A DNA stretch of 64,000 nucleotides from Candidatus Gastranaerophilales bacterium (GTDB lineage: Bacteria > Cyanobacteriota > Vampirovibrionia > Gastranaerophilales > Gastranaerophilaceae): the NCBI GenBank assembly GCA_944326585.1, contig CALVEN010000007.1, forward strand, positions 282 through 64,281, read 5' to 3'. How positions within the stretch are numbered: position 1 is the stretch's first letter; the number at the start of each line of letters is the position of its first letter. Below, in pieces: positions 7,986-60,197 of the stretch. Made by a program: the position numbers and the translations under genes. The notes below the pieces were generated by a model. It searched no databases and was not told the DNA's origin. It worked only from the letters and a program-made list of their open reading frames with translations.

Positions 7986-8006
7986 TAGATTTTTATAAAT
8001 ATTATT

Positions 8007-8030
8007 AAGGCGGGCAAAGCCCGCCTTTTT
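8007..8030 (+). terminator. Rho-independent terminator after fabG
   Basis: AAGGCGGGCAAAGCCCGCCTT hairpin plus TTT. Confidence 0.8.
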
Positions 8031-8088
8031 CGTTAAAAATTTTTTAAGATGACTTGAATTATTGTAGCGTATATGCTACAATAATTGT

Positions 8089-15723: not shown

Positions 15724-15792
15724 TATAATAAATTCAAAAGGAGAATGATAGATATGACTAGTTTGAATAACGGGGGGGGGCGACTCTCCTAA
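15721..15792 (+). promoter_or_regulatory. Pilin-family expression cassette 1: extended -10, SD, ATG, poly-G, premature stop
   Basis: TGATATAAT 15721-15729; AAGGAGA 15738-15744; ATG 15745 and 15754 (in frame); G9 15772-15780; TAA 15790-15792. Short frame encodes M(ID)MTSLNNGGGRLS*. Confidence 0.7.
15772..15780 (+). repeat. G9 homopolymer (candidate slipped-strand tract)
   Basis: Nine consecutive G in an AT-rich context, at the same relative position as the tracts at 38022, 43499, 51035 and 60113. Confidence 0.95.
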
Positions 15793-15926
15793 GTAGACAG
15801 GACAAGGGTTTCGGCGGTATTGGTTTAGTAAAGTTACTAAGATACTATGGCACTAAGGCACTAAGAAGTAACATTCGTCATGGTAAGGCGGATCAATATA
15901 GTTGTATTCGCAGGGAACCTGTCATC

Positions 15927-20307: not shown

Positions 20308-20414
20308 TCCATTACCAGTATAACTCGTTTTTGAAAGTATTTCAAGAATGATATCAAGAAATATGATTAGAATTTGGGATATATAGAAATTGTACTGCGC
20401 GCCGTAGACGGCGT

Positions 20415-21342
20415 ATCTACAATAGTAGAAATTTAGTATAGGTATTAAACCGGCAATTATACAATGCACTGCGGTGGCGATCTACAATAGTAGAAATTTA
20501 ATATAGGTATTAAACTCGTGGAGTAAATCAACGTGCTTGCCCATCTACAATAGTAGAAATTTAATATAGGTATTAAACAAATAGAATCATCAAAAGGCAC
20601 CTTTTAATCTACAATAGTAGAAATTTAATATAGGTATTAAACATGGTTCGTCTGCCTTATATTCGCTTCGGATCTACAATAGTAGAAATTTAATATAGGT
20701 ATTAAACTTCAAGACCGCCAAACATGCCCAAAATATCTACAATAGTAGAAATTTAATATAGGTATTAAACATTGCGTCAAACCTTGGCAACGGCAAATCT
20801 ACAATAGTAGAAATTTAATATAGGTATTAAACAGGAAGATTATGAACAACAAGAAGAATAATCTACAATAGTAGAAATTTAATATAGGTATTAAACAAAA
20901 AATCATGACAATAATACACGCTTTATCTACAATAGTAGAAATTTAATATAGGTATTAAACATCAATTTTGCAACAGCAAGTATCAGTGATCTACAATAGT
21001 AGAAATTTAATATAGGTATTAAACATGACAAGATATGAAGATAGTTTCGTCTATCTACAATAGTAGAAATTTAATATAGGTATTAAACAGCCGAAGCGAG
21101 CCTTCACACACTGGAGGATCTACAATAGTAGAAATTTAATATAGGTATTAAACGAGGCTATGGTAGTTTCTGGCGATGTATCTACAATAGTAGAAATTTA
21201 ATATAGGTATTAAACAAATGAATGCATATCTTGATACGGCGGAATCTACAATAGTAGAAATTTAATATAGGTATTAAACAACTCTCGGGCATCAATGCTA
21301 CTTCATATCTACAATAGTAGAAATTTAATATAGGTATTAAAC
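20415..21342 (-). CRISPR. Type V-A CRISPR array, 15 repeats and 14 spacers
   Basis: 36-nt repeat, minus-strand reading GTTTAATACCTATATTAAATTTCTACTATTGTAGAT. This carries the Cas12a crRNA handle AAUUUCUACU-AUU-GUAGAU. Repeat starts on the + strand: 20415, 20480, 20543, 20607, 20672, 20735, 20797, 20861, 20925, 20989, 21053, 21118, 21180, 21244, 21307. Spacers are 26-29 nt. The leader-distal repeat (20415-20450) has one substitution. Confidence 0.97.
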
Positions 21343-21479
21343 CCTTAGAAGGTAATTTTTACCTATTTTTGGATATTTTATTGTCAAAGTACGACATATT
21401 TGGTTATATTTCATCTCATTTAATACCTATATTTATAATTTTTTTATATTAAGACTCAGGTTTGTACAAATCTAGTAAA
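21343..21479 (-). promoter_or_regulatory. CRISPR leader
   Basis: AT-rich 137 nt between the cas2 stop and the first repeat. The degenerate repeat is at the opposite end of the array. Confidence 0.75.
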
Positions 21480-21755
21480 CTAATCTACTATTATTATATC
21501 ACTTTCTTCATTTTTTAAAAAGCCATATTTAGAAATTTTACAATTTTCACTTGTTTCTATTATTAAAACACTATCAGTTTGTTTAAATAAATTTTTAAAA
21601 ACACTATCTATTTCATTTTTTATAATATCTAATAATCGTTTGCTATTTTGTATTTTATATACAGAAAATTGCATTCGGTTCCCGTATTTTCGTAAAAATT
21701 TTGAAAATTGTGTTCTTAATTTATCATCCGCTATATCATAACTTACTAATATCAT
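21480..21755 (-). CDS. cas2: CRISPR-associated endoribonuclease Cas2
   Basis: MILVSYDIADDKLRTQFSKFLRKYGNRMQFSVYK is a canonical Cas2 N-terminus. 4-nt overlap with cas1. Confidence 0.92.
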   Translation of the reverse strand: MILVSYDIADDKLRTQFSKFLRKYGNRMQFSVYKIQNSKRLLDIIKNEIDSVFKNLFKQTDSVLIIETSENCKISKYGFLKNEESDIIIVD

Positions 21756-22710
21756 AAGACCGCCTTTGGGAATTTATTTATATCATCATCTTTCATAAAC
21801 CATCTGTAATATTGTTGTATAAAATCAAAAATATTTTCTTTATAATTCAATATTTCTTCTAAAATTTGACAAACAAAATTGTTGCTGTCTTTCCAATCTA
21901 ATTGATATTGTTCTTTATGTTGTGTAAATTTATAATTTTCTATTTGTTTTAAATTTATCATTTTCCTTATTTTATAATCCACAATAGGTCTAAATGGTTC
22001 TATAATATCGCATACTAAAGATTTTCTTTTATAAAATTCTTTATGTAAATTACCTTTATAAATGTCAAAACCGTATATGTTTAATATTGCTTCTATATAA
22101 TTAAATAATACAGTATACCCTATATCTAAAAGTAAATTTATTTTATCTCTTTTTACTCTCGGCTGGCGTCCCTGCCAATCAAAAGGTTTAAACATCCTAT
22201 TAAAATAAATTTTTGCACATGTTCCCTCAATGCCCATAATTTCGTAATTATTATAATCAGACTTTGATAATTTATTTATTGAATCATTTAATTTTTTTAT
22301 TCCGTCTTTAAATTCTTTATCTCTTAATTTCTTTAAAAAATTTCTTTGATTAGATATTTTATTTATAATCAATTGCTTCGCAATTTCTTCACTGCGAGTT
22401 GTTATATATTGTTTTTCATGAAGTAAAAAATTACCTTCCAATACAAAATTTATTGTTGAGTAAACTTTAAAACCGGGTGTAAATAATACTATTGAAAATC
22501 CAAATTTTTTGCTCCTTGAAATTATTCCGCTTGTTAAGGTAATACCACCAACTATAAAAAGTGCAAATAAATTATAGCAACTTAATTGAAATTTAATTTT
22601 ATCTTCTTTGTCAAAGATTACAACATTATCATTTTTGAAGGAAATTTTGTCCCTTCATGCGTAAAGACAATTATAACTTTTTTCTCTAAAAAATCTGGTT
22701 TGGTCAGCAT
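21752..22710 (-). CDS. cas1: CRISPR-associated integrase Cas1, interrupted by a 1-nt frameshift near codon 23
   Basis: ATG 22710 overlaps the cas4 stop (ATGCTGA) and encodes MLTKPDFLEKKVIIVFTHEGTK. The -1 frame continues ISFKNDNVVIFDKEDKIKFQLSCYNLFALFIVGGITLTSGIISRSKKFGFSIVLF... into the track ORF 21752..22441. One extra A in the A4 run at 22645-22648 would give a 319-aa Cas1. Confidence 0.88.
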
Positions 22711-23264
22711 AATAAACTCCTGTCACAGCTTGGTTCATATATACAATTTTTACATTTGTCTATATTTTGTGCTTTAAATGTATGAATATCAAAATCGTGA
22801 ATATCCTTGATTAACTTTCGGAATTTGTTATCAGTTTCTTGGTCTTCTTTAGGGAGTTTGATGTCATAATTTTTATTATCTTTAATACTGTGAAATCTTA
22901 TTTTTTTAACTTCATAACCCATCTCAATTAATGCATAATATTGTGCATATAATTGAAATACATAACCGTCGTATATTTTTATTATTTTATTCTTTCGTTC
23001 GGTTAAAATACCTGTTTCTATATCAAATGTATCAATCTTTCCGGCAATATTAAATTCTGAACAAAATATGTTTATTCCCTGTAAAATAGTTTTTTTATCC
23101 GAATATAATTGTTTGTCAATTGTCTTATGAGCATTAGTTCCTGAAGTTTGTTTTGTTGATTGATACACAGATTTTTCTAATGTCCCGTATAACTTATGAA
23201 AATAAATTGATACGGGACAAAAGATAAAATCATTTAGATATGAGATTAATATTGTTTCTTCCAT
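22704..23264 (-). CDS. cas4: CRISPR-associated exonuclease Cas4
   Basis: N-terminal Cys (FCPVSIYF), RecB-like D...ERK core, C-terminal CKNCIYEPSC cluster. 1-nt overlap with cas12a (TAATG). Confidence 0.9.
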   Translation of the reverse strand: MEETILISYLNDFIFCPVSIYFHKLYGTLEKSVYQSTKQTSGTNAHKTIDKQLYSDKKTILQGINIFCSEFNIAGKIDTFDIETGILTERKNKIIKIYDGYVFQLYAQYYALIEMGYEVKKIRFHSIKDNKNYDIKLPKEDQETDNKFRKLIKDIHDFDIHTFKAQNIDKCKNCIYEPSCDRSLLC

Positions 23265-26200
23265 TATTCACTATCAAGTTCTTGTATATAAGTTAACCAG
23301 TCAGAATTTTTTATTGCATAAGCTATTTTTTCACCTCCATTTGTATGCTTTATACGATTAAGGATAATTAGTCCTTTTCTGGCTATATTATAAGCTCCGT
23401 TCGCGTCAGCATTTTGAGGCAAAGAATTATCACAACATCTTGAATCAAAGAAAAATCCTTTTTTATTTTTTATCGGTGATAATATATAATCTTTTTCGTT
23501 ACCTGTAATACTATTTCTTAATTGTACTAAAAGCTTAAATAAAATTCCAAAACCATTAAATCCGTCTTTTTCGGCAACTGCATTAAAGAATTTTGTATCC
23601 GCCTTGTCAAGTATTTCATTTTTTATGTTTTGATAATCTATATTATATTTATCAAATAAAATTTGAAATTCCTTGGTTAAATTTACGGTAATATTATCCC
23701 ATTCATTATTCTTCTTAGGATTTCGGAATGTTCGTATTCTGTCACCGTATGTACAAAGAGTCCATTCAGTTCTGTTTCCGGAAGATTTATCACTGAAATT
23801 TTTATAATCAAAATTAAATTCAAAATAATTTTCTTGATTATTAAATTTTATAAAATTAAATTTTTTAATAAATTCTTTATCAACTTTTTTTAAATCAAAT
23901 AAATTTACAAAACCCGTAGTCGGATCAATTTTACTCGTCCACACTGCAGGAATATAAAATATTATTCCATTTTGTTTTGTACTATTTATTTCTTTTGTTG
24001 CAAGCTGGTATGCATTCATCAATCCGCCCTGTTCAAATTTGTTTTGAATTGATTTATCAACAAGATAACTTAGTTTATCAATTAATTTTGTTTCAAATTT
24101 ATCATATACGGATTTTTCGACTTTTTTTCTTGAATTTTTAAAGCCGCTATTTAAATCTTCCAGTACTATAATGGCATTGTATTTGAACATTAAACGGGTA
24201 AGTTCATGCACAACCTGACTCATATATCCTTCTTTTAATTCTTTTATGTTTTGAATAGTACCCCACGATTTTCTATTGGCATCTCTTTCGGCCTCTTTTC
24301 TTTCGAGTAAATCATGGTAATTTGTATTTTCGATTATATTTAAAGAACGTTGTTCAATAATTTCACCGTTCATGTTGATAACGCTTATGTATAGAAGATG
24401 TCTTTCGCCTCTATCAATACCTATAATGTGAATATCATCAGAGTTTTTAATTTCATTGTTTGTAAAATCATTTAATTTGTTTATGTTTTGTGCTTTAAAA
24501 TTCAATGTAATCGGAACATGGAACTGAAATTTATCCAATGTAAATCTTTTATCTTTGATTAAATCATATTCAAAAGTACTGTATTTTTTAGGATTATCAG
24601 GGTTTTTATTTTCAATGGGTTCATTTTTAGGATGAGTTACTTTTGTTTCAATACTCTTTTTTCTGTAGAAAATTTCCGCTCCGCCGTTTAATTGATATAT
24701 GACATCTTTTAAGTTGTCTGCATCAAATAAGGCTCTCCAATACATTGTATGCAGATTCGGACGACCTTTTGAATATTTTGAAAAATCTTTGTTATAAATT
24801 TGGAAAAGATAAAGTTTACCTTCTTCTACAAGTTGATTTATGTAACTTTCAGAAATATTTGTAAAAGAAATTTTATATCCTTGCAGCTCAACTTCCCGAT
24901 AAAATTGACTTATATCTTGATATGTATTAGTATCCGAAAATTTAAAGTTGAATTTTGACCAGTCTTCATGCTTATTTATAGATTGTTTATAAAAATCTAT
25001 TAGTTCATGACAAAATCCTAAATCAAAATTTGCTCCTTTTTTATATAATCCTTTTTCATATTTGGCTATCAATTCATCGGAAGGATTAAATTCTTCTTTT
25101 CTGGAGTCTGAAAATAATACTTTTGGAAGCATTTTATTGGGACCGGGAAGCAATTTATATTCTATTTTTTCATAATATGATAAAGCTGACTCTTTATCAT
25201 TATTAATAAAAATTTTTCTGTTATTTTTATTGATAATTCCAATGTAATAATTTCCGTCTTTAATTAACAATGTCCCTAAATTTGCTTCTTCTTTATTCAA
25301 GTCCCAGCCGCTTAAAAAAGTAGGGCAATCAAAATTAAGTTTAAATTTTTCGACAGAATAAGGTTTTTTGGTTAAATAATTTCTTGTTTTGTTATAAACC
25401 GGAATTATTTCAGATAACAGTTCATAATTAAGCGAATTATAAAATTCTAAATCTGTTTCAATTGATTTGTTTTTCGGAATAAGGTGTTTTATAAGCATCT
25501 GTACATTTTTTAGTGAATCAAGGAAATCTTTTATTTTTTCAACTGCTTTTTTGTCTTGTATCAATTGTGTAGATGTTTCATCATATTCTTTTTCAAGTAT
25601 AGGTTTTACTTCAGAATAAGTTTTATCTATGAGTTTAAAATGTTCATTTATTTTATCTTTAAAATAGTTATAAAGTTTACCTTCATTGTTGCTATCTTTG
25701 TCATATTTTGATATAAGTTCTTCAATTCTATAAAGTGAAATTTCTTTAATTTTTTTTAATTCGTTATCTTTTTTGTCTGTATATTTTTCTGTTCCGTAAG
25801 CCAGTTTACCTTTATAATTATTGTCATATTCCATACTCAAAAGATAATTAATATAGCCCCAATCTTTGTAGATATTTTGGCTTATTCCTGTATTATCATC
25901 CAGAATTAAATAAATTTCTTCTGTATTATAGTTAGATATATTTTCAATAACATTTTCAAATGATTTATTTTCTATGAAAGCATCAGAAAATATTTTAAAA
26001 TAGTTATTAATGAGCTCAGTTACCTGTTTATCAGATTCAATCGTATTAAATTTAAAAGAAACAGAATTTGCATCACTTAAAATTTGCTTATAAAGCTGTT
26101 TTAATTTTGGGATTTTAATTTTTGTATCTTGAATATATTTATTTACTATTTCATTTATACCCTGTATTTTTTTATCATTTGTTGCTTTTCCGGAAATAAT

Positions 26201-26923
26201 AAGATTATATTCTTCAATTTGCCTTTGATTTAAAACATGTGTATAATTTTCAACGGTAGAAAAATATTCATCACAATCAAGTCCTAAATTTTGTTTTATT
26301 GTGTTTTTTATTTCAGGAATATTTTCTGAAATTTTATTAAATGCTTTAATATTCTTTAAATAAATAGGCAGATTTTCATTAATTAACCTGTAAGCTATAG
26401 ACGTATGTTTTTCTTCATTTGAATACATATTTTTTCGGTTTGTATCAAAACCTGAAAAATACGTTGTGAATTTTTCAAACACTTTTATTTCTTCAAGGAT
26501 TTCATTGTTGTTTTTATAATATTCTTGTAAATTTTTATTAATCATGTCTTTTCCAAAAAGAGTATTATATTTGGAATTCTTAGTAAATCTATCGGAAATT
26601 TTTTGACGTAATAATTTTTCTATACTTGAAAATTCTTTTTCTTCTTTTTCAGATAAATTTTGGCGGTTAAAAAATTCTGTATATTGTATTAATAAACATT
26701 TAAAATTTTCATCATTAAAATTATCCAAACATTCATTAATGAAATATTTATGATATTCATCACAATATTTTTTAATTTTTTGATATAATATCGCCTTTTT
26801 TTCATCTTCTTTTAAAATATATTCCGCAAAATACTCCTTTGTTTTTCCAATCGGAATAAGCTCAAATCTTAAAGTTTTTGAAACTTTAAATAAATTGTGA
26901 AAACAGTCATAAAAATTTTTCAT
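23264..26923 (-). CDS. cas12a: Cas12a (Cpf1), type V-A effector, 1219 aa
   Basis: N-terminus FKVSKTLRFELIPIGKT. RuvC-I IGIDRGERHLLY, RuvC-II IVLEDLNSGFK, RuvC-III DADANGAYNIARKG. AGGAG lies 6 nt before the ATG. The repeat type matches. Confidence 0.95.
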   Translation of the reverse strand: MKNFYDCFHNLFKVSKTLRFELIPIGKTKEYFAEYILKEDEKKAILYQKIKKYCDEYHKYFINECLDNFNDENFKCLLIQYTEFFNRQNLSEKEEKEFSSIEKLLRQKISDRFTKNSKYNTLFGKDMINKNLQEYYKNNNEILEEIKVFEKFTTYFSGFDTNRKNMYSNEEKHTSIAYRLINENLPIYLKNIKAFNKISENIPEIKNTIKQNLGLDCDEYFSTVENYTHVLNQRQIEEYNLIISGKATNDKKIQGINEIVNKYIQDTKIKIPKLKQLYKQILSDANSVSFKFNTIESDKQVTELINNYFKIFSDAFIENKSFENVIENISNYNTEEIYLILDDNTGISQNIYKDWGYINYLLSMEYDNNYKGKLAYGTEKYTDKKDNELKKIKEISLYRIEELISKYDKDSNNEGKLYNYFKDKINEHFKLIDKTYSEVKPILEKEYDETSTQLIQDKKAVEKIKDFLDSLKNVQMLIKHLIPKNKSIETDLEFYNSLNYELLSEIIPVYNKTRNYLTKKPYSVEKFKLNFDCPTFLSGWDLNKEEANLGTLLIKDGNYYIGIINKNNRKIFINNDKESALSYYEKIEYKLLPGPNKMLPKVLFSDSRKEEFNPSDELIAKYEKGLYKKGANFDLGFCHELIDFYKQSINKHEDWSKFNFKFSDTNTYQDISQFYREVELQGYKISFTNISESYINQLVEEGKLYLFQIYNKDFSKYSKGRPNLHTMYWRALFDADNLKDVIYQLNGGAEIFYRKKSIETKVTHPKNEPIENKNPDNPKKYSTFEYDLIKDKRFTLDKFQFHVPITLNFKAQNINKLNDFTNNEIKNSDDIHIIGIDRGERHLLYISVINMNGEIIEQRSLNIIENTNYHDLLERKEAERDANRKSWGTIQNIKELKEGYMSQVVHELTRLMFKYNAIIVLEDLNSGFKNSRKKVEKSVYDKFETKLIDKLSYLVDKSIQNKFEQGGLMNAYQLATKEINSTKQNGIIFYIPAVWTSKIDPTTGFVNLFDLKKVDKEFIKKFNFIKFNNQENYFEFNFDYKNFSDKSSGNRTEWTLCTYGDRIRTFRNPKKNNEWDNITVNLTKEFQILFDKYNIDYQNIKNEILDKADTKFFNAVAEKDGFNGFGILFKLLVQLRNSITGNEKDYILSPIKNKKGFFFDSRCCDNSLPQNADANGAYNIARKGLIILNRIKHTNGGEKIAYAIKNSDWLTYIQELDSE

Positions 26924-28439: not shown

Positions 28440-28835
28440 TGGTGGAGACGGTGGGACTCGAACCCACGTCCAAAATGGACCAACATAAACCTCTACGTGT
28501 GTAGATACTCATTTTCTCGGCTGATTCAGGAAAGTATCACTACCCTTAAATCAGCCAAAGTATTTTTTTCGGAAATACTTAACCTTTAATGGTTATCTTG
28601 ATACGCCTACCATCATCAACGTACTGCGTCTTGCATAAGTGGACCCCAACAGCCGGCAAGCTGGGCTATTGAAGTGGCTGACTGCGTCTTACGCAGCAAG
28701 AGCGTATGCTCTTGAAAAATCAGCTTTAATTACGTTGTCTTTAGCATTTAATTTGCTATGCTCGTTGATAACCGAGAACAGCGCTCGGACACGCAGCTTA
28801 TATCAATCATCATCCTGTCAAATCCGGACGTCCCC
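28440..28835 (-). ncRNA. ssrA: tmRNA (SsrA), one-piece
   Basis: 5' GGGGACGTCCGGATTTGACAGG. 3' GACGTGGGTTCGAGTCCCACCGTCTCCACCA. Acceptor stem GGGGACG/CGUCUCC with G3:U. Tag reading frame AKDNVIKADFSRAYALAA* (GCT AAA GAC ... GCT GCG TAA). Confidence 0.93.
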
Positions 28836-37968: not shown

Positions 37969-38063
37969 TGATATAATAAACCCAAAACAAGGAGAGTGTT
38001 GATATGACTAGTTTGAACAACGGGGGGGGGCGACTCCTCCAGGTACAGATAGCAAGGTTTTAG
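37969..38063 (+). promoter_or_regulatory. Pilin-family expression cassette 2
   Basis: TGATATAAT 37969-37977; GGAGAG 37991-37996; ATG 38004; G9 38022-38030; stop TAG 38061-38063. Short frame encodes MTSLNNGGGRLLQVQIARF*. Confidence 0.7.
38022..38030 (+). repeat. G9 homopolymer
   Basis: Nine G. Position equivalent to the other four tracts. Confidence 0.95.
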
Positions 38064-38239
38064 GCGGTATTGGTTGTGTAAAGTTACTAAGATACTATGG
38101 CACTAAGGCACTAAGAAGTAACAGAAAAGTAGGTCGGCATTACCATGCCGACAGAAAAGTTTACTGTCGGGTTAGTAACCCTGACCAACGCGTTACAGAA
38201 AGAATTGACACAACCCCTGAAACAAATTATAATTCTAAT

Positions 38240-39079
38240 ATGATAAACTATAAATCAGAAAACAAAAACGTGAGAGAAGTTCAGTGTAACCACACCCCTC
38301 ACTCTACTCACTCGACTCAAGCAAAACGTGTCGCGTTTACTCTGGCGGAGGGTGCTACGCACGTAGACATGTCAGACAACATTCGTCGTGTGGCATTCAC
38401 TCTGGCGGAAGTTTTGATAACCCTTGCCATAATAGGTATTGTGGCAGCTGTGACAATTCCGACGTTAATAACAAAGTATCAAGAGAAGCAGACAGTAACA
38501 AGGTTTAAGTGGATATATTCAACATTAGCGAATGCTTTCACTATGGCTGTTGCGGAAAACGGGGCGCCTGAAACTTGGGATTTGAATAGTGCTGAAGATA
38601 TGGCAAATATTTTGTCAAAATATATGAGAATTAGTGAAAAATGTTATAATACCGCTGGTTGTTTGCCTCCGGATTTAAATATTGTTGCATTGACTGGCGA
38701 AATGCGTTATACATTACCCGGCAATGCAAATTATGTAAAATCACGTTTTAATAACGGCATAAGCCTTATGTGGTTTGAGCCTCATAAAGGGTGCAGTTAT
38801 TCTTATATTGATACTGATGGCAACCAAATAGATGTAGAAAACAGTTGCGGCTCTTTGTACGCTTTTATCTCAACGAATCGTACAAACAGATATGGTCTTG
38901 ACCATTTTGTTTTTACAGTTACACCGAAGGGAATATTGCCGGGCGGTTATGATTATAATGACAGCAATATAAAGCGGAATTGCACAAAAAATTGGACATC
39001 CGATGGTAATACAAATGGTGCTACCTGCGGGGAATGGATAAGACGCTGGGGTAATGCGGATTATTGGTATGATAATTAA
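38240..39079 (+). CDS. Prepilin-type N-terminal cleavage/methylation-domain protein, paralog 38
   Basis: RRVAFTLAEVLITLAIIGIVAAVTIPTLITKYQEKQT. The frame is open upstream to the G9 tract. Internal ATG 38369 gives MSDNIRRVA|FTLAE. Confidence 0.85.
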   Translation: MINYKSENKNVREVQCNHTPHSTHSTQAKRVAFTLAEGATHVDMSDNIRRVAFTLAEVLITLAIIGIVAAVTIPTLITKYQEKQTVTRFKWIYSTLANAFTMAVAENGAPETWDLNSAEDMANILSKYMRISEKCYNTAGCLPPDLNIVALTGEMRYTLPGNANYVKSRFNNGISLMWFEPHKGCSYSYIDTDGNQIDVENSCGSLYAFISTNRTNRYGLDHFVFTVTPKGILPGGYDYNDSNIKRNCTKNWTSDGNTNGATCGEWIRRWGNADYWYDN

Positions 39080-43440: not shown

Positions 43441-43510
43441 TGGTATATTATAGAAAACAAGGAGAGTGCAAATGGAAGATATGACTAATTTGAATAACGG
43501 GGGGGGAGCG
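43441..43510 (+). promoter_or_regulatory. Pilin-family expression cassette 3 (in frame)
   Basis: TGGTATATT 43441-43449; GGAGAG 43461-43466; ATG 43472 and 43481; GGGGGGGGAG 43499-43508. There is no stop afterwards. Confidence 0.7.
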
Positions 43511-44608
43511 ACTCTTCTAAGTAGGCAGGACAAGGGTTTTGACGGTATATTTTGGGAAAAGTTACTAAGATACTATGATACTAAGGCAGTAAGAAGTAAC
43601 AGAAAAGTAGGTCGGCATTACTATGCCGACAGAAAAGTTTACCGTCGGGTTAGTAAACCCGACCTACAAGAGAATATGGCTCAGAATGACAAGAATATCA
43701 TCCCTCGCCCCTTGGGGAGAGGGTGTCACGAAGTGACAGGAGAGGGGCTAAGTGACAAAAATGTGAGCAAAGCTCACAGAAAACGCTTAGTGCCTTACTG
43801 CCTTAGTAACTTAGTATCTTCACAAAAAGCCGCGTTTACCTTAGCAGAGGTTTTGATAACCCTCGGCATAATCGGTATTGTGGCAGCGATGACAATTCCG
43901 ACACTTATTACGAATTATCAGGAAAAACAAACAATTTCCAAATTACAAAAAGTCTACGCGTCTTTAAAGAATGCATTTGAACTTGCAAAAGTTGAGCATG
44001 GTGATTATGAAACCTGGTCGTGGAATCAGATTCCTGTAACCAATGGCGCGCGAACACAATATTTTTGGGAAACATATATTTTCCCGCATTTAAAGATTGC
44101 TAAAAAATGTTTCCCGATAACAACGGAATGTGTCGCAGAGGGTATTACAAAATTGAATGGTACGGCTGAATCTGTTGTTACATCTACACATGGTGCTTTT
44201 GTTTTATATGACGGTACATATGTTTATACGTGGGCTGGAGGTTCCGGTTTTCATCCGCATATTTGGGTGTATGCTGATATCAACGGTGAGGCAAAGCCAA
44301 ACGTGGTAGGCAAAGATATATTTACTATGTTTTTCTCGCCAAAAAATCCAGGGAATAAAATCGGCTCGTTTGATGACGATAATAATTTTGTTGACTCAGG
44401 AAAATTATCAACCCCTGCTTACGGATTAAGTTTGTATGGAGATGTAAACGGGGTTACCGTTGAAGATCTTATGGATCCGAATTTTGTTCTGGAAACTGAC
44501 ACAGGTGCCAAGCAAAAACATTGTTGTACCACAGAAGGCACAGGGTATATGTGCGGTGCGGCAATAAAATTAAACGGCTGGAAATTTCCCGACGGTTATC
44601 CCAGATAA
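43472..44608 (+). CDS. Prepilin-type protein, paralog 43; the whole long leader is in frame with the cassette ATG
   Basis: Single ORF MEDMTNLNNGGGATLLSRQDKGF...QKAAFTLAEVLITLGIIGIVAAMTIPTLITNYQEKQT...ADINGEAKPNVVGKDIF. Confidence 0.85.
   Translation: MEDMTNLNNGGGATLLSRQDKGFDGIFWEKLLRYYDTKAVRSNRKVGRHYYADRKVYRRVSKPDLQENMAQNDKNIIPRPLGRGCHEVTGEGLSDKNVSKAHRKRLVPYCLSNLVSSQKAAFTLAEVLITLGIIGIVAAMTIPTLITNYQEKQTISKLQKVYASLKNAFELAKVEHGDYETWSWNQIPVTNGARTQYFWETYIFPHLKIAKKCFPITTECVAEGITKLNGTAESVVTSTHGAFVLYDGTYVYTWAGGSGFHPHIWVYADINGEAKPNVVGKDIFTMFFSPKNPGNKIGSFDDDNNFVDSGKLSTPAYGLSLYGDVNGVTVEDLMDPNFVLETDTGAKQKHCCTTEGTGYMCGAAIKLNGWKFPDGYPR
43499..43506 (+). repeat. G8 homopolymer followed by A-G (an interrupted 10-nt tract)
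   Basis: GGGGGGGGAG occupies the position where the OFF copies have G9. Confidence 0.95.
43517..43872 (+). repeat. 356-bp leader cassette, apparently identical to 51052..51407
   Basis: A by-eye base-by-base comparison found no mismatch between the two intervals. The flanks diverge at once on both sides. Confidence 0.8.
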
Positions 44609-46368: not shown

Positions 46369-49300
46369 ATGTTAAATATTGATTGTTTATCCGGTGAAAA
46401 ATTTTTAGAATACAGAGATTATGTTAAAAAATCATGGTCTTTTGCGGTTACGGGGTTAACTTCGCTTTTAAGGCTTTTGTTAGTCAAAAATGCCCGTGAC
46501 TATTCTAAAAAGAAGATTTTACTTGTTACATCAACCGAGCAGAATGCATTAAAGTTTCAAAACGATTTTAAAAGAGGTTTTGATATTGATGCCGCGTTAA
46601 TTCCTTTTCAAAATATTTCAATGTATGAAGGAGTTTCGCCGAATTTGTATGAATATTTTGAGCAGATAAAAATTTTGCGGCAAAAACCTGATTTAGTTAT
46701 TTGTCCCGTTAAAACCTTGCTTGAAAAGTTTCCGGATGAAGAATTTTTTGAGAAAAATTCTTTAAAAATAAAAGTAGGCGATGAGGTTAATTTAAAAGAA
46801 TTAAGTCAAAAGCTTGTTAATCTCGGATACAAACGCGCCACTATGGTCAGTGATATAGCTGAATTCAGCATAAGGGGCGATATTGCGGATATTTTTTCAC
46901 TGGACGATAACCCTGTAAGAATTGAATTATGGGGAGATGAAGTTGTAGACATCAGGTATTTTAACAATGAAACTCAAAAATCAGTCGAAAAGGCAAAAGA
47001 GATTGAGATTTTACCTGTATATAAATTTGTGCTTGATGAAAACAGTCCGAAACTCAATGAAGAAGACGAAGGGTATTTTGAAGGGATTGAAGTTTATCAG
47101 AATTATTTTAATGACAACCTTGTCGGGGTTTTGGATTATTTAAAAGATTATATAATTGTTTTTGACGAAACGTCCGAAATTTACTCAAAATATGAATTTG
47201 TTGCGCAGAATTTGGAAAAACAGCTTGAAGAAAATTCGAAACTTGAGCTTTTAAAACCGTTAAAGGGCAAAAATCATTTTACTTTTGAAGAATTTTTGAG
47301 AAAAACGTCTTATTTTGTAAAAATCGGTCTTAATAATTTTATAGACGGCGAAATGGATGATATTATTGAATTTAATGCCATGCCGCTTCAAAATTTTGAG
47401 GCGAATTTAGATGCAATAGCCGATTTTATAAAAGAACATAGCCCTCTGGGAGAGGGAAGAATTTCAACGCAAGGAACTAGCGTTAGAAATTCGGGTGAGG
47501 GTGGATACAAAATAATTGTTGCAACGGATTACCCTGAACGTGTCAAGCAAATTTTGAGTGAGCGGGAAATATTTGACGTTGAATATACTGAAAGCCTTGC
47601 AAGCGCAGGATGTATTCTTGAGGATTGCAAAACAATTGTAATGACCGATAGAGAGCTGTTTAATAAACGTTCCAAAGAAATCACCGCGGCAAAACGTTCA
47701 TATTACAAGGAAAAACCGGAATTTATCGAAAATATAAATGATATTCAAGAAGGAGAATACGTTGTTCATACAATTCACGGGGTCGGGATTTACAGAGGGC
47801 TTACCCAGCAGGAGATTGACGGGCAGCTGAAAGATTACCTGACAATCGAATATGCTGCAAAAGACAGGCTTCACATCCCTGCAGAACAAATTAACATGCT
47901 TGTCAGATACCGCGGCTCCGGAAATATCAAGCCGAAACTTTCCAGAATGGGCGGTAAAGATTGGGAAAACACTAAAGCCAGGGTTAAAAAAGAAGTTGAA
48001 GCTGTTGCGTATGACCTTTTAAGGCTTTATGCAAGACGAAAAATGCAAAAAGGATTTCAGTTTTTGCCTGATACCACATGGCAGGTGGAAATGGAAGAAG
48101 CCTTTGAATTTGTTGAAACTCCCGATCAAATGCGTGCAATAAACGAAGTCAAGGCTGATATGGAAAGTGATGAGCCTATGGACAGACTAATTTGCGGGGA
48201 TGTGGGTTTTGGTAAAACTGAAGTTGCAATGAGGGCAATTTTTAAAGCCGTAACTTCCGGCAAGCAGGTGGCGGTTGTTGTTCCTACGACTATTCTTGCG
48301 CTTCAGCATTTTCAAACAATGTCTGAAAGGTTTAAGCCTTTTGGAGTTCATGTTGAATTGCTTTCAAGGTTCAGGAGTAAAAAGGAGCAGAAAGACACCG
48401 TAAAAAATCTTGCAACCGGCTCTTGTGACGTGGTAATCGGAACCCACAGGCTTTTGCAGGACGGAATTGTATTCAAAGATTTGGGGCTTCTGGTAATTGA
48501 TGAAGAACACAGATTTGGAGTAAGACATAAGGAAAAACTTAAACAACTGCGTGAAAATATTGATATTATAACGATGTCGGCAACGCCTATTCCCAGAACC
48601 CTTTATATGTCGTTATCTGGAATTAAAGATATGTCGGTTATTAATACTCCTCCAAAAAACAGGCTTCCTATAAAAACCTATGTCGGCGAGTGGAATGAAA
48701 ATATGGTTAAAAATGCCATTATCCATGAGCTTGACCGCGAAGGACAGGTTTTTTATCTTTATAATCGTGTTGAAACTATTGAAGAATTCAAATTTCATCT
48801 GCAAAAACTTGTCCCCAATGCCCGAATTGCCGTAGGACACGGACAGATGGACGAAAAACAGCTTGAAGAAGTGATAGTCGATTTTGCAAACCATGAATAT
48901 GATATTCTTCTTGCAACAACAATTATTGAAAACGGAATTGATATTCCTAATGCAAATACAATGATTATCCATGATGCCGACAGATTCGGACTTGCGCAGT
49001 TGTATCAATTAAGAGGCCGTGTCGGTCGTTCCCAAAGACAGGCTTATTGCTATTGTTTTTACAGAAAAAGTAAAGAGATTACAAAAGACGCAGTACACAG
49101 ATTAAAAGCCATAAAAGAGTTTACAACACTCGGAAGCGGTTATCAAATCGCATTAAGGGATGTCGAGATAAGAGGGGTCGGGAATATTCTCGGCACCAAG
49201 CAGCACGGCCATATGATAAATGTCGGTTTTGATACATATTGTCAGCTTCTTGAAGAAACTGTTCAGGAGCTGCAAGGTCATTATGTGGAAAAATCCGAAC

Positions 49301-49773
49301 CCACTATTGTTGATATAAATGTAACGGCATTTATTCCGGATGAATGGGTTGGGTCTGCCGATCAAAAAATGATAGAATACAAACGTCTGGCGGATGTAAA
49401 ATCTCAGCTTGAATTGGATTATATAACCGAGGAGTGGAAAGACAGATTTGCAAAACCTCCCGAAAGCGTTGAAAATTTAATAAAATTAATCAAAATCAGG
49501 CTTGCCGCAACCGATGTAAAGATTTCGCTTATACGTGAGACTTCTGAAAATATAAGGATTTATACTCCATTCACCCAGCCCGAGTGGAATATAATTCAAA
49601 AAGCGCTTCCCGGGAATATATTAAAACGTATTAAGTTCACGCTTGCGCCGAAATCTTGTGAGGAAGGCAATTCAATTGTTTTATTAAACAATTCATATAT
49701 GAATTTTGATGAAGTATTTAACATTTTAACGGATTTGTTTTATTATATTTATAAAGTCAGTCATGAATATTAA
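46369..49773 (+). CDS. mfd: Transcription-repair coupling factor Mfd
   Basis: CarD-like EGEYVVHTIHGVG. Helicase motifs GDVGFGKTEVAMRA, DEEHRFGV, MSATPIPRT. TRG motif region. Length 1134 aa. Confidence 0.95.
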   Translation: MLNIDCLSGEKFLEYRDYVKKSWSFAVTGLTSLLRLLLVKNARDYSKKKILLVTSTEQNALKFQNDFKRGFDIDAALIPFQNISMYEGVSPNLYEYFEQIKILRQKPDLVICPVKTLLEKFPDEEFFEKNSLKIKVGDEVNLKELSQKLVNLGYKRATMVSDIAEFSIRGDIADIFSLDDNPVRIELWGDEVVDIRYFNNETQKSVEKAKEIEILPVYKFVLDENSPKLNEEDEGYFEGIEVYQNYFNDNLVGVLDYLKDYIIVFDETSEIYSKYEFVAQNLEKQLEENSKLELLKPLKGKNHFTFEEFLRKTSYFVKIGLNNFIDGEMDDIIEFNAMPLQNFEANLDAIADFIKEHSPLGEGRISTQGTSVRNSGEGGYKIIVATDYPERVKQILSEREIFDVEYTESLASAGCILEDCKTIVMTDRELFNKRSKEITAAKRSYYKEKPEFIENINDIQEGEYVVHTIHGVGIYRGLTQQEIDGQLKDYLTIEYAAKDRLHIPAEQINMLVRYRGSGNIKPKLSRMGGKDWENTKARVKKEVEAVAYDLLRLYARRKMQKGFQFLPDTTWQVEMEEAFEFVETPDQMRAINEVKADMESDEPMDRLICGDVGFGKTEVAMRAIFKAVTSGKQVAVVVPTTILALQHFQTMSERFKPFGVHVELLSRFRSKKEQKDTVKNLATGSCDVVIGTHRLLQDGIVFKDLGLLVIDEEHRFGVRHKEKLKQLRENIDIITMSATPIPRTLYMSLSGIKDMSVINTPPKNRLPIKTYVGEWNENMVKNAIIHELDREGQVFYLYNRVETIEEFKFHLQKLVPNARIAVGHGQMDEKQLEEVIVDFANHEYDILLATTIIENGIDIPNANTMIIHDADRFGLAQLYQLRGRVGRSQRQAYCYCFYRKSKEITKDAVHRLKAIKEFTTLGSGYQIALRDVEIRGVGNILGTKQHGHMINVGFDTYCQLLEETVQELQGHYVEKSEPTIVDINVTAFIPDEWVGSADQKMIEYKRLADVKSQLELDYITEEWKDRFAKPPESVENLIKLIKIRLAATDVKISLIRETSENIRIYTPFTQPEWNIIQKALPGNILKRIKFTLAPKSCEEGNSIVLLNNSYMNFDEVFNILTDLFYYIYKVSHEY
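47441..47504 (-). mobile_element. GC-rich palindromic element lying in frame inside mfd
   Basis: GCCCTCTGGGAGAGGGAAGAATTTCAACGCAAGGAACTAGCGTTAGAAATTCGGGTGAGGGTGG. Its reverse complement shares CCCTCACCCGAATTTCTA...GAAATTCT.CCCTCTCCC with the intergenic copy at 63672..63726. Confidence 0.7.
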
Positions 49774-49789
49774 ATAAGGAGACATTTAT

Positions 49790-50917
49790 ATGAAGGGAAA
49801 AAAATTACTTGCAACACTTGCGGTATCGGCAGTATTGTTTGCAGGCTGCGGTCTTAAATCTCATGAGGCCGTTATTAAGGTAAATGATAAAGTCATTACT
49901 CAGGCACAATTTGACAAAGCTTTTGACAAACAGGCAGATAATTCCGTATTTGCAAGAATGGGTATAAAAATTAAAGAAAATCCAAACGGATTTATGTATT
50001 TGATGATTAAAGAAAGAGTCACCAATGAATTAATTATTAAGGCTTTATTGGACGAAGAAATCGCAAAACGTAAAATTAAAGTTACAAATGATGACGTAAA
50101 TCAAGCAGTTAAAGAAATTATTGATAAAGTAGGTTCTAAAGAACAGCTTAATTTGATATTAAAGCAAAACGGAATTACATCTTCTCAGTTTAGAAATGAT
50201 TTAAAAGAAGAAGTCAGGATGAAAAAACTTGCTTTGCAGCTGGGCGACAGCAGTGTTTCTGATGCGGAAGCAAAAAAATTCTATGACGAGAATGTCGCAA
50301 GATTCAAATATCCGGAAAAAGTCAGAGCATCGCATATTTTGGTTTCCGCAAATCCTGTTGAAATCGAAGAAATTATAACTTCTGACCCGAAAAATAAAGA
50401 TTTAAAAGCCGACGAAATTAAAATTAAAGTAAACGAAGAACTTAATGCAAGAAAAGCTAAGGCTGACAAATTATATAACGAGGCAAAGGCTGACATTGGT
50501 AATTTCGCCAAACTCGCAAAAGAAAATTCCGATGACACAACAACTGCCGTAAAAGGCGGTGATTTAGGATTTTTTGCTAAAGAAGAAATGGTTCCGGAAT
50601 TTTCAAAAGCCGCTTTTGCACAACGTCCTAATACAGTGTCACCTGTTGTTAAATCACAATACGGTTATCACATTATTCTTGTGACTGACAGAATGGAAGC
50701 CGGTCAGGAACCTTTTGAAAAAGCAAAAGTTGAAATCCAAAATTATTTGACTAATCAAAAACAACTTAAACTTCTTGATGATTTGACTGAATCTTTGAAG
50801 AAAAATGCAAAAATTGAATTTGTAAATTCAGAATATGATCCGAAAAATATTCAGGATAAGCTTCAAAAAGAAGTCAAACAGCAAGTAGAAAATGCAAAAC
50901 CGAAAGCTGAAAAATAG
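49790..50917 (+). CDS. Peptidyl-prolyl cis-trans isomerase, parvulin type (PrsA/SurA-like lipoprotein)
   Basis: Lipobox LFAGC. Parvulin domain ASHILV...GGDLGFF...SQYGYHIILV. Confidence 0.85.
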   Translation: MKGKKLLATLAVSAVLFAGCGLKSHEAVIKVNDKVITQAQFDKAFDKQADNSVFARMGIKIKENPNGFMYLMIKERVTNELIIKALLDEEIAKRKIKVTNDDVNQAVKEIIDKVGSKEQLNLILKQNGITSSQFRNDLKEEVRMKKLALQLGDSSVSDAEAKKFYDENVARFKYPEKVRASHILVSANPVEIEEIITSDPKNKDLKADEIKIKVNEELNARKAKADKLYNEAKADIGNFAKLAKENSDDTTTAVKGGDLGFFAKEEMVPEFSKAAFAQRPNTVSPVVKSQYGYHIILVTDRMEAGQEPFEKAKVEIQNYLTNQKQLKLLDDLTESLKKNAKIEFVNSEYDPKNIQDKLQKEVKQQVENAKPKAEK

Positions 50918-50922
50918 TTGAT

Positions 50923-50952
50923 AAAAAAGCACCCCGCAAGGGGTGCTTTTTT
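50923..50952 (+). terminator. Rho-independent terminator
   Basis: AAAAAAGCACCCCGCAAGGGGTGCTTTTTT. Confidence 0.88.
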
Positions 50953-50973
50953 CTTGCCAAAAATTCTAATTTT

Positions 50974-51055
50974 TGATATAATAAACCTAAAAAGAAGGAG
51001 AGCTAAAATGGAAGATATGACTAGTTTTAATAACGGGGGGGGGCGACTCTCCTAA
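50974..51055 (+). promoter_or_regulatory. Pilin-family expression cassette 4
   Basis: TGATATAAT 50974-50982; AAGGAGAG 50996-51001+; ATG 51008 and 51017; G9 51035-51043; TAA 51053-51055. Short frame encodes MEDMTSFNNGGGRLS*. Confidence 0.7.
51035..51043 (+). repeat. G9 homopolymer
   Basis: Nine G. Position equivalent to the other tracts. Confidence 0.95.
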
Positions 51056-51407
51056 GTAGGCAGGACAAGGGTTTTGACGGTATATTTTGGGAAAAGTTAC
51101 TAAGATACTATGATACTAAGGCAGTAAGAAGTAACAGAAAAGTAGGTCGGCATTACTATGCCGACAGAAAAGTTTACCGTCGGGTTAGTAAACCCGACCT
51201 ACAAGAGAATATGGCTCAGAATGACAAGAATATCATCCCTCGCCCCTTGGGGAGAGGGTGTCACGAAGTGACAGGAGAGGGGCTAAGTGACAAAAATGTG
51301 AGCAAAGCTCACAGAAAACGCTTAGTGCCTTACTGCCTTAGTAACTTAGTATCTTCACAAAAAGCCGCGTTTACCTTAGCAGAGGTTTTGATAACCCTCG
51401 GCATAAT
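51052..51407 (+). repeat. 356-bp leader cassette, apparently identical to 43517..43872
   Basis: See 43517..43872. Confidence 0.8.
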
Positions 51408-52137
51408 TGGGATAGTAGCAGCAATGACAATCCCGACGATATCGCGTAATATTCAGCATGCCGTACTAAAAAATCAATTCAAGAAATTCTACAGCACTTT
51501 CTGGCAGGCGGTAATCGGTATACAGACAAAAGGAGGCAGACCTGTACAGTGTTATTACTGGGATGGCGCAAATCCATATACGGGCAAATGCACCCCGACA
51601 TGTGATGAAGATGAAAAAAATCAATACGGTAACTGTACTGTATATAGGTGTGCGGAAACAGGAGAACCCATTCCGACGGATATAAACGGAAAGTCTTCGG
51701 AGTGCAGTGATTTTTATGAGGAATTGTTTTTAAAAACATTAAAGACAACAAAAATATGTAAAGATAAGGCATATGAACAGGGGTGCCTGCCGGAAGACTT
51801 CAGAGGTGTGGATGTTGTAAAATCAGAACAAAATCCGGATAAAGAATATGACCCTGCAGGAATTTTTGCTGATTCCCCTGTGAAAAATAATTATCCTGTC
51901 TTTGTGTTAGCTGACGGAACATATATTGTAGGTTATGCTCGTTATTTAGCGGGTTTGCCTATTTTTGTCGTGGACATAAACGGGACTAAAGGTCCAAACA
52001 AATGGGGTTATGATATATTTTCTTTTAGCTTGAGGGGTAATGCGCAAACCGGAATAAATAAATTGAATAGTGCAACTTATGCAACGGAAAAAGGCGGGAA
52101 AACTTTTCAGCAGATGCTGGACGAATGTTTTAAATAG
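51211..52137 (+). CDS. Prepilin-type protein, paralog 51
   Basis: QKAAFTLAEVLITLGIIGIVAAMTIPT, then a mature domain unrelated to paralog 43 but homologous to the partial gene at 1..546. The frame is open upstream to the G9 tract. Confidence 0.85.
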   Translation: MAQNDKNIIPRPLGRGCHEVTGEGLSDKNVSKAHRKRLVPYCLSNLVSSQKAAFTLAEVLITLGIIGIVAAMTIPTISRNIQHAVLKNQFKKFYSTFWQAVIGIQTKGGRPVQCYYWDGANPYTGKCTPTCDEDEKNQYGNCTVYRCAETGEPIPTDINGKSSECSDFYEELFLKTLKTTKICKDKAYEQGCLPEDFRGVDVVKSEQNPDKEYDPAGIFADSPVKNNYPVFVLADGTYIVGYARYLAGLPIFVVDINGTKGPNKWGYDIFSFSLRGNAQTGINKLNSATYATEKGGKTFQQMLDECFK

Positions 52138-58922: not shown

Positions 58923-59948
58923 CTAACTGCAAGAATGTTTGCCGTCCCAGGATAAATCATCACAATCCCAGTAATCCATATTGCCGTTATAAATTACCCA
59001 TGCAGTACATGTTACATTATTTCCCGTATAAGTTTTGTTCAGACAGGCATTCTCAAAAGATGAACCGATATATGTTCTGTTCGGCATTCCTTGCGGTAAA
59101 ATCCCATCGCGATATATATCAAATTTAAATACGTCTTTTCCGATTTGATTTGGTGATGCGCTTCCGTTTAAATCTACGGTAATGGTTCCGCAATTTCTAA
59201 AATACAATTCACGTTCTTCAGTGGAATTTTTATATGCTTGACACCATACTTCTGCAGCGTTGTCGCCGTTCGCCCCTAAAAATTTTATTGAAGTGCCGTT
59301 ATTGAGTATAAAGGTTTTTTTCATTCTTCCCGGATTGTCCAGATGAGATTTATTCAGCTTGTAGTAATCTTTACCCCAGCAGGCTGTATATATTTTTTCA
59401 TAATTGCTTGCTTCACATGTTTTTAAAATTTTAAGAAATTGCGGCATAATTTTATTGTATATCGGTTCTATATCATATCTATTATTTGCTCCCCAAAAAT
59501 TAATTGGTCCATATTCCTTAATTGCCATATCAAATGCACTGTTCAGGATACTGTAGGTGTGTTTTAATTTTGTTACGAATACTTTTTCTTGATAATTCGC
59601 AACTAGTATCGGAATAGTCATAGCAGCCACAACACCGATAATTGCCAGAGTAATTAGAACCTCCGCCAAAGTAAAGGCGGGTTTTTTAGAAGATACTAAG
59701 TTACTAAGGCAGTAAGGCACTAAGAATTTACTGTGAGCTTCGCTCACTAATTCTTCCCTCCCGCCCTTGAGGGGGAGGGTTAGGGTGGGGGGAATTTTTT
59801 GAGATCCTTCGGCTATCGCCTCAGGATGACCTGTAAAATTACACAGAGACCCCGAATGTTGTCGTGCCTCAGGCACCTCAGGATGACATGATACTTCCGT
59901 CATCCCGGACTTGTTCCGGGATCTTATTTTATCTATTAGATCCCGCAA
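58923..59948 (-). CDS. Prepilin-type protein, paralog 59
   Basis: KKPAFTLAEVLITLAIIGVVAAMTIPILVANYQEK...VDLNGSASPNQIGKDVFKF. The frame is open upstream to the C11/G11 tract. Confidence 0.85.
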   Translation of the reverse strand: MRDLIDKIRSRNKSGMTEVSCHPEVPEARQHSGSLCNFTGHPEAIAEGSQKIPPTLTLPLKGGREELVSEAHSKFLVPYCLSNLVSSKKPAFTLAEVLITLAIIGVVAAMTIPILVANYQEKVFVTKLKHTYSILNSAFDMAIKEYGPINFWGANNRYDIEPIYNKIMPQFLKILKTCEASNYEKIYTACWGKDYYKLNKSHLDNPGRMKKTFILNNGTSIKFLGANGDNAAEVWCQAYKNSTEERELYFRNCGTITVDLNGSASPNQIGKDVFKFDIYRDGILPQGMPNRTYIGSSFENACLNKTYTGNNVTCTAWVIYNGNMDYWDCDDLSWDGKHSCS

Positions 59949-60100
59949 TAAATGCGGGATGACGTATAAGGATTGTCCAAGCTCAAGTGTAATGTCCTGC
60001 CTTTGGCAGTGCGGGATGACGTTTATAGTTTGTAGATTTATTTTTTCACAAAGATTTTTATTTTTTTGAGATGCTGAAACCAGTTCAGCATGACCGGAGG

Positions 60101-60197
60101 TTAAGCTAACTGCCCCCCCCCCCTGAATGAAAAGTAGTTGTTATGCGTATTTGCGCCCATTTTTTAACCTCCAAGTATTCTGTTACTTATTATATCA
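60101..60197 (-). promoter_or_regulatory. Pilin-family expression cassette 5 (minus strand)
   Basis: Minus strand: TGATATAAT (60197-60189); GGAGG (60172-60168); ATG 60160; G11 (60123-60113); TAA 60103-60101. Short frame encodes MGANTHNNYFSFRGGGQLA*. Confidence 0.7.
60113..60123 (-). repeat. G11 (C11 on the + strand) homopolymer
   Basis: Eleven consecutive C on the + strand. Confidence 0.95.

Follow-up and report, generated by a model that had tools for sequence, protein, structure and literature searches.

Organization of locus 4

The 64,000 nucleotides of contig CALVEN010000007.1 from a Candidatus Gastranaerophilales bacterium analysed here (the window) contain five complete loci for pilin-like proteins and the 3' end of a sixth. 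The subject of this report is locus 4, in which a homopolymer of nine G residues (G9) lies between the start codon and the pilin frame and is one base short of the length that would join the two. Upstream of locus 4, all of whose features are on the plus strand, lies a gene for a PpiC/SurA-like peptidyl-prolyl isomerase (49790-50917, identified by NCBIfam), and 3' of that gene a hairpin followed by a T run (AAAAGCACCCCGCAAGGGGTGCTTTT; 50925-50950) is seen in the sequence. The hairpin resembles those after other genes and is not listed by the consensus scan; it is the probable terminator of the PpiC/SurA-like gene, and with a terminator at this position locus 4 would form its own transcription unit. 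A sigma-70-type promoter-like site of the form TTGCCA-17 nt-TATAAT follows (50954-50982), with 11 of 12 positions matching and a TG ahead of the -10; the string TGATATAAT, starting at 50974, is the extended -10 of this site. The same promoter block also precedes loci 1 and 2. A Shine-Dalgarno sequence, AAGGAGAG (50995-51002), is placed 5 nt from ATG 51008 and is kept in the paralogs.

The G9 homopolymer (51035-51043), the proposed switch, makes up codons 10-12 (GGG GGG GGG) counted from ATG 51008. As the locus stands, the frame opened by this ATG reads MEDMTSFNNGGGRLS and then terminates at TAA 51053-51055, giving an OFF reading frame of 15 codons (51008-51055). A tract of G10 (3n+1) joins the pilin frame, G9 leads to TAA 51053, and G8 or G11 leads to TAG 51057, both off frames ending within 3-5 codons past the tract. 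With one G added, the frame reads ATLLSRQDKGFDGIFWEKLLRYYDTKAVRSN... and runs into the open reading frame (ORF) 51211-52137, predicting a G10 product of 376 residues. A first-pass annotation of this DNA had placed the string TGATATAAT at 50974, the start at ATG 51008, the G9 run and the stop at TAA 51053, all of which were confirmed on re-reading positions 50700-51900; it had also claimed that the +1G frame joins the ORF at 51211, and there is indeed no stop in between.

In the pilin frame the leader, or pro-region (51043-51369), comprises 109 codons with 0 stops, compared with 9 and 11 stops in the other two frames, and it ends ...SSQKA before the motif A|FTLAE, where the bar marks the predicted cut. 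Measured as protein, the leader is ~120 residues long from ATG 51008 and 53 residues long from ATG 51211. The mature pilin-like protein (51370-52137, including the stop codon) begins F1-T-L-A-E5 with a hydrophobic N-terminal helix, which leads into a cysteine-rich head of 200 residues. Apart from the tract, locus 4 carries no other lesion, with the promoter, Shine-Dalgarno, 109-codon leader and 255-codon domain all intact.

The pilin-like protein

The locus 4 protein passes both the TIGR02532 model (19.3 bits against a cut-off of 16.3) and the Pfam N_methyl model (PF07963; 22.5 against 21.2). AlphaFold2 modelled the mature domain with a predicted local distance difference test score (pLDDT) of 91.4, as an N-terminal helix spanning residues 3-55 (53 residues) followed by an alpha/beta head. 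Features shared with type IV pilins and pseudopilins are the FTLAE motif with Glu5 and the hydrophobic helix; in the model, the 53-residue N-terminal helix precedes a globular head. In contrast, all five window loci and the homologs examined have Ala in place of Gly at position -1, and the leader of ~120 residues compares with a usual 5-30; a short (about 5-30 residue) basic prepilin leader ending in Gly is not found at locus 4. As judged from its sequence, the locus 4 protein fits the prepilin-type definition and not the usual leader features.

A Foldseek search of the modelled head against the PDB returned no significant match, the best being a type IVb pilin of enterotoxigenic Escherichia coli (ETEC) with E = 0.45 and a template modelling (TM) score of 0.21-0.25. 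The locus 4 protein has no match to Pfam DUF6613 (PF20318), and the locus 3 protein scores below the gathering threshold of that family (19.8 against 24.3). Many locus 3 homologs carry precomputed DUF6613 annotations, locus 4 being of a different head-domain class. A search of the literature on DUF6613 found no papers.

A family of tract-bearing pilin loci

All five complete loci are built to the same design, which reads, 5' to 3', promoter, Shine-Dalgarno, ATG, 6-13 codons, G tract, long leader, pilin motif and variable head. The pilin motif across loci is A|FTLAEVLITL(G/A)IIG(I/V)VAA, and the head spans ~200-250 residues. The G+C content of the window is 35.7%, and background runs of G or C reach 6 at most. 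There are five runs longer than 6 (three G9, one G8 and one C11), and all of them lie in pilin-gene leaders at the same position, which is not a matter of chance. Locus 1 (15772-15780, plus strand) carries G9, is off, and has a 192-codon open leader. Locus 2 (38022-38030, plus strand) likewise carries G9 and is off; the related locus L001, from a metagenome-assembled genome, has G10 and is in frame. The C11 run is the plus-strand view of a G11 tract at locus 5 (60113-60123, minus strand), which is off, precedes the pilin ORF 58923-59948, and differs from the other loci in its pre-tract peptide and leader. All four pure G tracts of the window are thus in the off state, each one G short.

Locus 3 (43499-43508, plus strand) is on. 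Its tract is G8AG, in which a synonymous change of GGG to GGA yields an interrupted tract of 10 nt, and its ORF extends from 43472 to 44608, bearing out the earlier description of this locus as the in-frame paralog. Over a stretch of 300 nt (43500-43799 versus 51035-51334) the leaders of loci 3 and 4 share 99% identity; their head domains differ. The differences that the first-pass annotation had listed between the two segments, namely G8AG against G9, C/T at 43516/51051, and MTNL against MTSF in the pre-tract peptide, are exact. Its suggestion that locus 3 could serve as an internal control for sequencing error was less apt, since the G8AG tract is interrupted and the control is not a clean one. 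The leader identity of loci 3 and 4, taken as a sequence pattern, indicates recent gene conversion or recombination between paralogs. At the syntenic loci L004 and L005, a locus-4-type promoter region stands ahead of a gene of the locus 3 type, and EPSP synthase comes next, in the arrangement of locus 3.

The key indication that the leaders are coding comes from their stop codons. Between the tract and FTLAE, the pilin frame of the five window loci has 0 stops in 108-192 codons, compared with 9-18 in each other frame. The frame is open although the leaders vary in length and content, so its openness is maintained by selection, and a selectively open frame in turn means that translation of the leader starts at the ATG ahead of the tract.

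The sixth paralog is represented by its 3' end at the left edge of the window (91-546, plus strand), which is 71-89% identical to 51711-52133 and shares its head-domain class with locus 4. Its ortholog in L033 (3001-4125) and L034 (194-1318) carries a shortened, interrupted G6-A tract in frame, apparently an allele locked in the on state.

Tract alleles in other assemblies

Homologs were collected by a protein search with locus 3, which returned more than 7,500 relatives, and DNA was fetched around selected proteins (46 loci). Together with those of the window, the fetched loci gave a census of 59 tracts, the proportions of which are biased in that off-state proteins were used for most look-ups. 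The 59 comprise 47 G9 tracts that are off, 4 G10 tracts that are on, 2 G11 tracts that are off, 5 interrupted tracts in frame, and 1 tract that is G10 by substitution and off. Many full-length relatives begin with Met, ~8-12 residues and then GGGAT(L/P)L, which is the predicted in-frame reading of G10. Among the listed members of five clusters at 90% identity, full-length proteins (M...GGGAT or RGGAT) were found on 32 contigs and 5'-truncated proteins on 95. A scan for the DNA pattern of pre-tract codons plus tract gave one match in the genome collection, L001, and no match in the JGI metagenomes.

For the orthologs of locus 1, those of locus 3 and two other loci, direct comparison of alleles revealed tract-length polymorphism at the same locus, in flanks that are otherwise near-identical. 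For instance, L007 and L013 represent one syntenic locus with near-identical flanks, and carry AAC-G9 (off) and AAC-G10 (on), respectively. Near-identical flanks also surround AAT-G9 (off) in L006 and L010 and AAT-A-G9 (on) in L011 and L012. For the ortholog of locus 1, G9 is found in L014, L015 and L018 and G10, with a product of 463 residues, in L016 and L017. At a DeoC-SulP locus seven samples carry G9, and L029 carries G11. In synteny with locus 3, L003, L004 and L005 have G9 and are off, and the G8AG allele is present on other contigs as well.

Two further loci illustrate how the state of a gene may be misread. In L039 (1264-1273) a G takes the place of the C that precedes the tract (AAC to AAG), with the consequence that the run is G10, the frame is unchanged and the gene is off; tract length alone is therefore insufficient to tell the state. 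At the FabF-pilin locus (L014-L023, ~8001-8050), the start after the Shine-Dalgarno is TTG in the G9 alleles, and a candidate ATG overlapping the Shine-Dalgarno is in frame with the pilin, leading to full-length gene calls of 380 residues (P0161, 31 contigs) despite G9.

For the locus 4 gene itself, the evidence of polymorphism comes from proteins. The 90% cluster that contains the locus 4 protein has 308-residue off calls on 10 contigs (one of 296 residues) and 373-376-residue on calls on 4 contigs, the latter (P0311, P0314 and P0317) all reading M...GGGATLL; the off calls include P0312, which is the protein of the window, and P0053. Tract polymorphism of locus 4 is accordingly documented for proteins alone. 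The +1G product predicted from locus 4 aligns with P0311, which is found on two contigs, over 376 residues without a gap and at 94% identity, a match which means that the allele predicted in the first-pass annotation exists in nature. An independent strain, L035, is 96.6% identical to the window in DNA and has G9, with the pre-tract peptide MEVMTSLDN as in the on-protein P0311. L002 was dropped as an independent replicate, because over 3953 nt it does not differ from the window (100% identity). The claim that locus 4 is a pilin gene one G out of frame is hence supported by the open frame, the allele pairs, the cluster members and P0311.

In-frame mobile-element modules in the leader

The leaders of the family differ greatly in length, with a distance from tract to FTLAE of about 20 to 250 codons at the loci other than locus 4. 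Much of the locus 4 leader is occupied by an in-frame insertion (51094-51355, plus strand) that resembles a miniature inverted-repeat transposable element (MITE), is ~260 nt long and is made of nested palindromic modules. Its ends read AAGTTACTAAG... and ...CTTAGTAACTT, with terminal inverted repeats at 51094-51128 and 51321-51355 whose arms of 27 nt are 93% complementary, and a copy is present at 43559-43820 in locus 3. The corresponding empty site is found in syntenic L003 (3085-3125), where the leader passes from ...GGTTTAGTA directly to TCTTCAC... and the ~260 nt block is cleanly absent, identifying 51094-51355 as an inserted MITE-like element. The pairing of 51102-51128 with 51329-51355 had also been considered as an invertible switch or an RNA structure, and was rejected because L003 is without the whole block; the pair are terminal inverted repeats.

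Palindromic modules also occur at 15831-16260, 38081-38190 and 59690-60030, and all of them keep the frame open. Within the window they were found in pilin leaders only, with a related one inside mfd (46369-49773). There, a 22-residue stretch encoded at 47441-47505, SPLGEGRISTQGTSVRNSGEGG, resembles the translated leader modules, as can be seen by comparison with PRPLGRGCHEVTGEG in loci 3 and 4 and with MGEGRISTRGTSVRNSGEGW at the start of P0208 and P0209; the resemblance suggests that such an element has also inserted, in frame, into a housekeeping gene. In locus 2 (38333-38410) the AFTLAE codons occur twice with a 42 nt module (GATHVDMSDNIRRV) between them, as if an insertion at the prepilin cleavage site had duplicated 18 nt of its target. 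This 42 nt module also stands ahead of AFTLAE in locus 1 (16314-16373) and occurs in P0051. A search of the whole window against Rfam at gathering thresholds returned only a transfer-messenger RNA (tmRNA), with no known RNA family over the conserved leader.

It would be the removal of the leader by prepilin peptidase that allows it to tolerate insertions; the cut in the long leader would fall at A|FTLAE.

A probable slipped-strand switch and its alternatives

The organization of locus 4 and its relatives probably reflects a slipped-strand poly-G contingency switch in a translated leader, locus 4 being one of many independently switched pilin genes. Transcription would proceed from the promoter-like site at 50954-50982 and translation from ATG 51008, with 50954-52137 forming one expression locus. 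Slipped-strand mispairing at replication would change the length of the tract. With G9, the ribosome would halt at TAA 51053 after 15 codons and no pilin would be made (OFF), and the gain of one G, giving G10, would bring leader and pilin into a single frame (ON). Since each paralog has its own tract, a population would express shifting subsets of pilins with different head domains. We infer a rate of slippage within the population that is high and reversible. The benefit to the cell would lie in variation of a surface structure, for instance in adhesion, or in escape from phage or from immunoglobulin A (IgA).

A number of observations weigh against this interpretation. Variation of the tract is documented between samples and not within one population. 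G9 is very dominant, and all off tracts but one are in the same off frame; at the DNA level, locus 4 has been seen only as G9, in the window, L002 and L035. A leader of more than 100 residues and Ala at -1 are atypical for prepilins, and neither a prepilin peptidase nor pilus machinery was found among the window ORFs scanned. A termite-gut Gastranaerophilus genome has been reported to encode pilA, pilB, pilC, pilD and pilT (PMC5877343).

The dominance of G9 and the shared off frame would also fit a tract fixed at G9 with low-level polymerase or ribosome slippage, and this is the alternative that survives best, unlikely as it is. The functional state would then be G9 itself, with a low and constant supply of pilin obtained by a programmed -1 frameshift on G GGG GGG, or from transcripts to which a slipping RNA polymerase has added a G. 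In its favor, 47 of the 59 tracts are G9, every pure G9 tract needs the same one-base shift, and the tract can pair with the CUCUCC-type motif that follows it as a small hairpin in all four window loci folded (1-4). However, folds 3' of the tract are no stabler than those of shuffled sequence (z from -0.1 to -1.6), and the G11 tract of L029 lies in the other off frame. Furthermore, a programmed site would keep its length and would not need in-frame DNA alleles, which are common (G10, A+G9, G8AG and G6A) and account for about a quarter of contigs in the five clusters. Most of the slippery heptamers and slippage-prone runs that are known are rich in A/U.

Under a second and still less probable alternative, the tract is irrelevant: translation of the pilin would begin internally, for example at ATG 51211, and the ATG, tract and stop ahead of it would be a short regulatory upstream ORF or a part of the 5' untranslated region. 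Gene callers do start at ATG 51211 or an equivalent internal Met in most assemblies. Such a start, however, leaves the 108-192 open codons before FTLAE in five differing leaders, amid stop-rich alternative frames, unaccounted for, and the leaders vary in length by complete codons (an indel of 9 nt; 88 versus 97 codons). At locus 4, no internal start codon in the pilin frame is preceded by a Shine-Dalgarno at the proper spacing; a start at ATG 51211, which sits within a repeated module, would still leave a 53-residue leader.

A sequencing or assembly artefact, with one G missing from the consensus of a true G10 tract, is highly improbable. Long homopolymers are error-prone, and all four pure tracts of the window would need exactly one more base to be in frame, but G9 recurs in dozens of independent short-read assemblies from several pipelines (contig names NODE_, k87_, scaffold_ and ONAT22). 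A single sample, ERZ28614272, yields both lengths, with G10 in L013 and G9, G9 and G10 in L017. Runs of 7-9 A or T are also frequent in the window, and its long ORFs (1134, 1219 and 1042 residues) are intact. Equally improbable is a decaying pseudogene with a one-way frameshift in a redundant paralog, for although paralogs are many, most of them are off and no on allele of exactly the locus 4 sequence was found, locus 4 has no second defect, the same one-base state recurs at many loci in a manner unlike independent decay, and ortholog on alleles exist at 94% identity.

Pilin variation from silent cassettes, of the pilE/pilS type of Neisseria, was considered and rejected, as every locus has its own promoter-like site, Shine-Dalgarno, ATG and complete gene. 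For the same reason the word cassette, which the first-pass annotation had applied to locus 4, is misleading, the loci being expression loci rather than silent donors.

Other features of the window

The closest named RecA proteins, at 90-91% identity, are those of 'Candidatus Gastranaerophilaceae bacterium', 'Candidatus Melainabacteria bacterium 35_41' and 'Clostridium sp. CAG:967', a similarity that assigns the window to the Gastranaerophilaceae within the gut Melainabacteria. A type V-A locus of clustered regularly interspaced short palindromic repeats (CRISPR) and Cas genes occupies 20402-26923 on the minus strand, and consists of Cas12a/Cpf1 (23264-26923, 1219 residues), Cas4 (22704-23264) and Cas1 (21752-22441), all on that strand, together with an array (~20415-21342) of 15 repeats of ~36 nt (ATCTACAATAGTAGAAATTTAATATAGGTATTAAAC) with a period of 62-65. 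The tmRNA gene matched by Rfam (28440-28835, minus strand) encodes the tag peptide AKDNVIKADFSRAYALAA.

Comparison with known systems and biological meaning

The closest parallel to a slipped-strand switch distributed over many pilin genes is provided by the opa genes of Neisseria, of which 11 are phase-variable (PMC11868660). In both cases surface-protein paralogs are dispersed and each has its own promoter and start; the opa genes further have a slippage-prone repeat in a cleaved leader and switch independently to give changing subsets, as would the present loci. The opa repeat, in contrast, is a CTCTT pentamer, the products are outer-membrane beta-barrel adhesins, and the leader is a short Sec signal peptide; the host, too, is a proteobacterial pathogen, whereas the present loci belong to a gut melainabacterium and encode pilins with a leader of more than 100 residues. 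In the Neisseria genes pilC1 and pilC2, a poly-G run in the signal-peptide-coding part of a type IV pilus gene turns expression on and off by frameshift. PilC differs in being a pilus-associated adhesin and assembly factor encoded in two copies, compared with the pilin-like subunits and the large family described here. Pilin variation in Neisseria, which proceeds by gene conversion from silent pilS cassettes, is unlike the present case.

With respect to the tract, the AT-rich Campylobacter jejuni offers a second parallel. The modal length of its poly-G/C tracts is nine, and G8 tends to gain repeats and G11 to lose them (PMC3401435), a length bias that fits a G9/G10 toggle. Both genomes are AT-rich, and C. 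jejuni has tens of intragenic G/C tracts of 8-11 nt. The genes it switches are mostly those for glycosyltransferases, capsule or flagellar modification and restriction enzymes, with no pilin family that shares a promoter-leader block.

The mechanism proposed for locus 4 is hence a classical one, and what is new is the host lineage, the size of the family, and a leader of 110-250 residues composed of in-frame mobile-element modules. In the literature searched, an incomplete collection, no account of phase-variable pilins from Melainabacteria was found. A more far-reaching and tentative possibility, on which we place distinctly less weight, is that gut Melainabacteria have an opa-like, one-of-many type IV pilin system, with dozens of G9/G10-gated paralogs that differ in their head domains and an exceptionally long pro-region of 110-250 residues that acts as a landing pad for MITE-like palindromic elements and is cut at A|FTLAE. 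In such a system, insertions would survive only if they leave the frame open, because the pro-region would be cut off before assembly of the pilus.

Most such genes are called from arbitrary internal starts, and their true N-termini and on or off states are missed in annotation. The leader modules would represent a rare case in which insertions are tolerated within coding sequence because the affected segment of the protein is discarded. The Gastranaerophilales are uncultured, non-photosynthetic gut relatives of the cyanobacteria, and almost nothing is known of their dealings with their host, with phages and with other microbes. If the proposed switch is real, the per-locus G count in metagenomic reads would be a measurable trait that could be followed across hosts and over time, and independently switched pilins would give these bacteria a highly variable cell surface, as in host-adapted pathogens.

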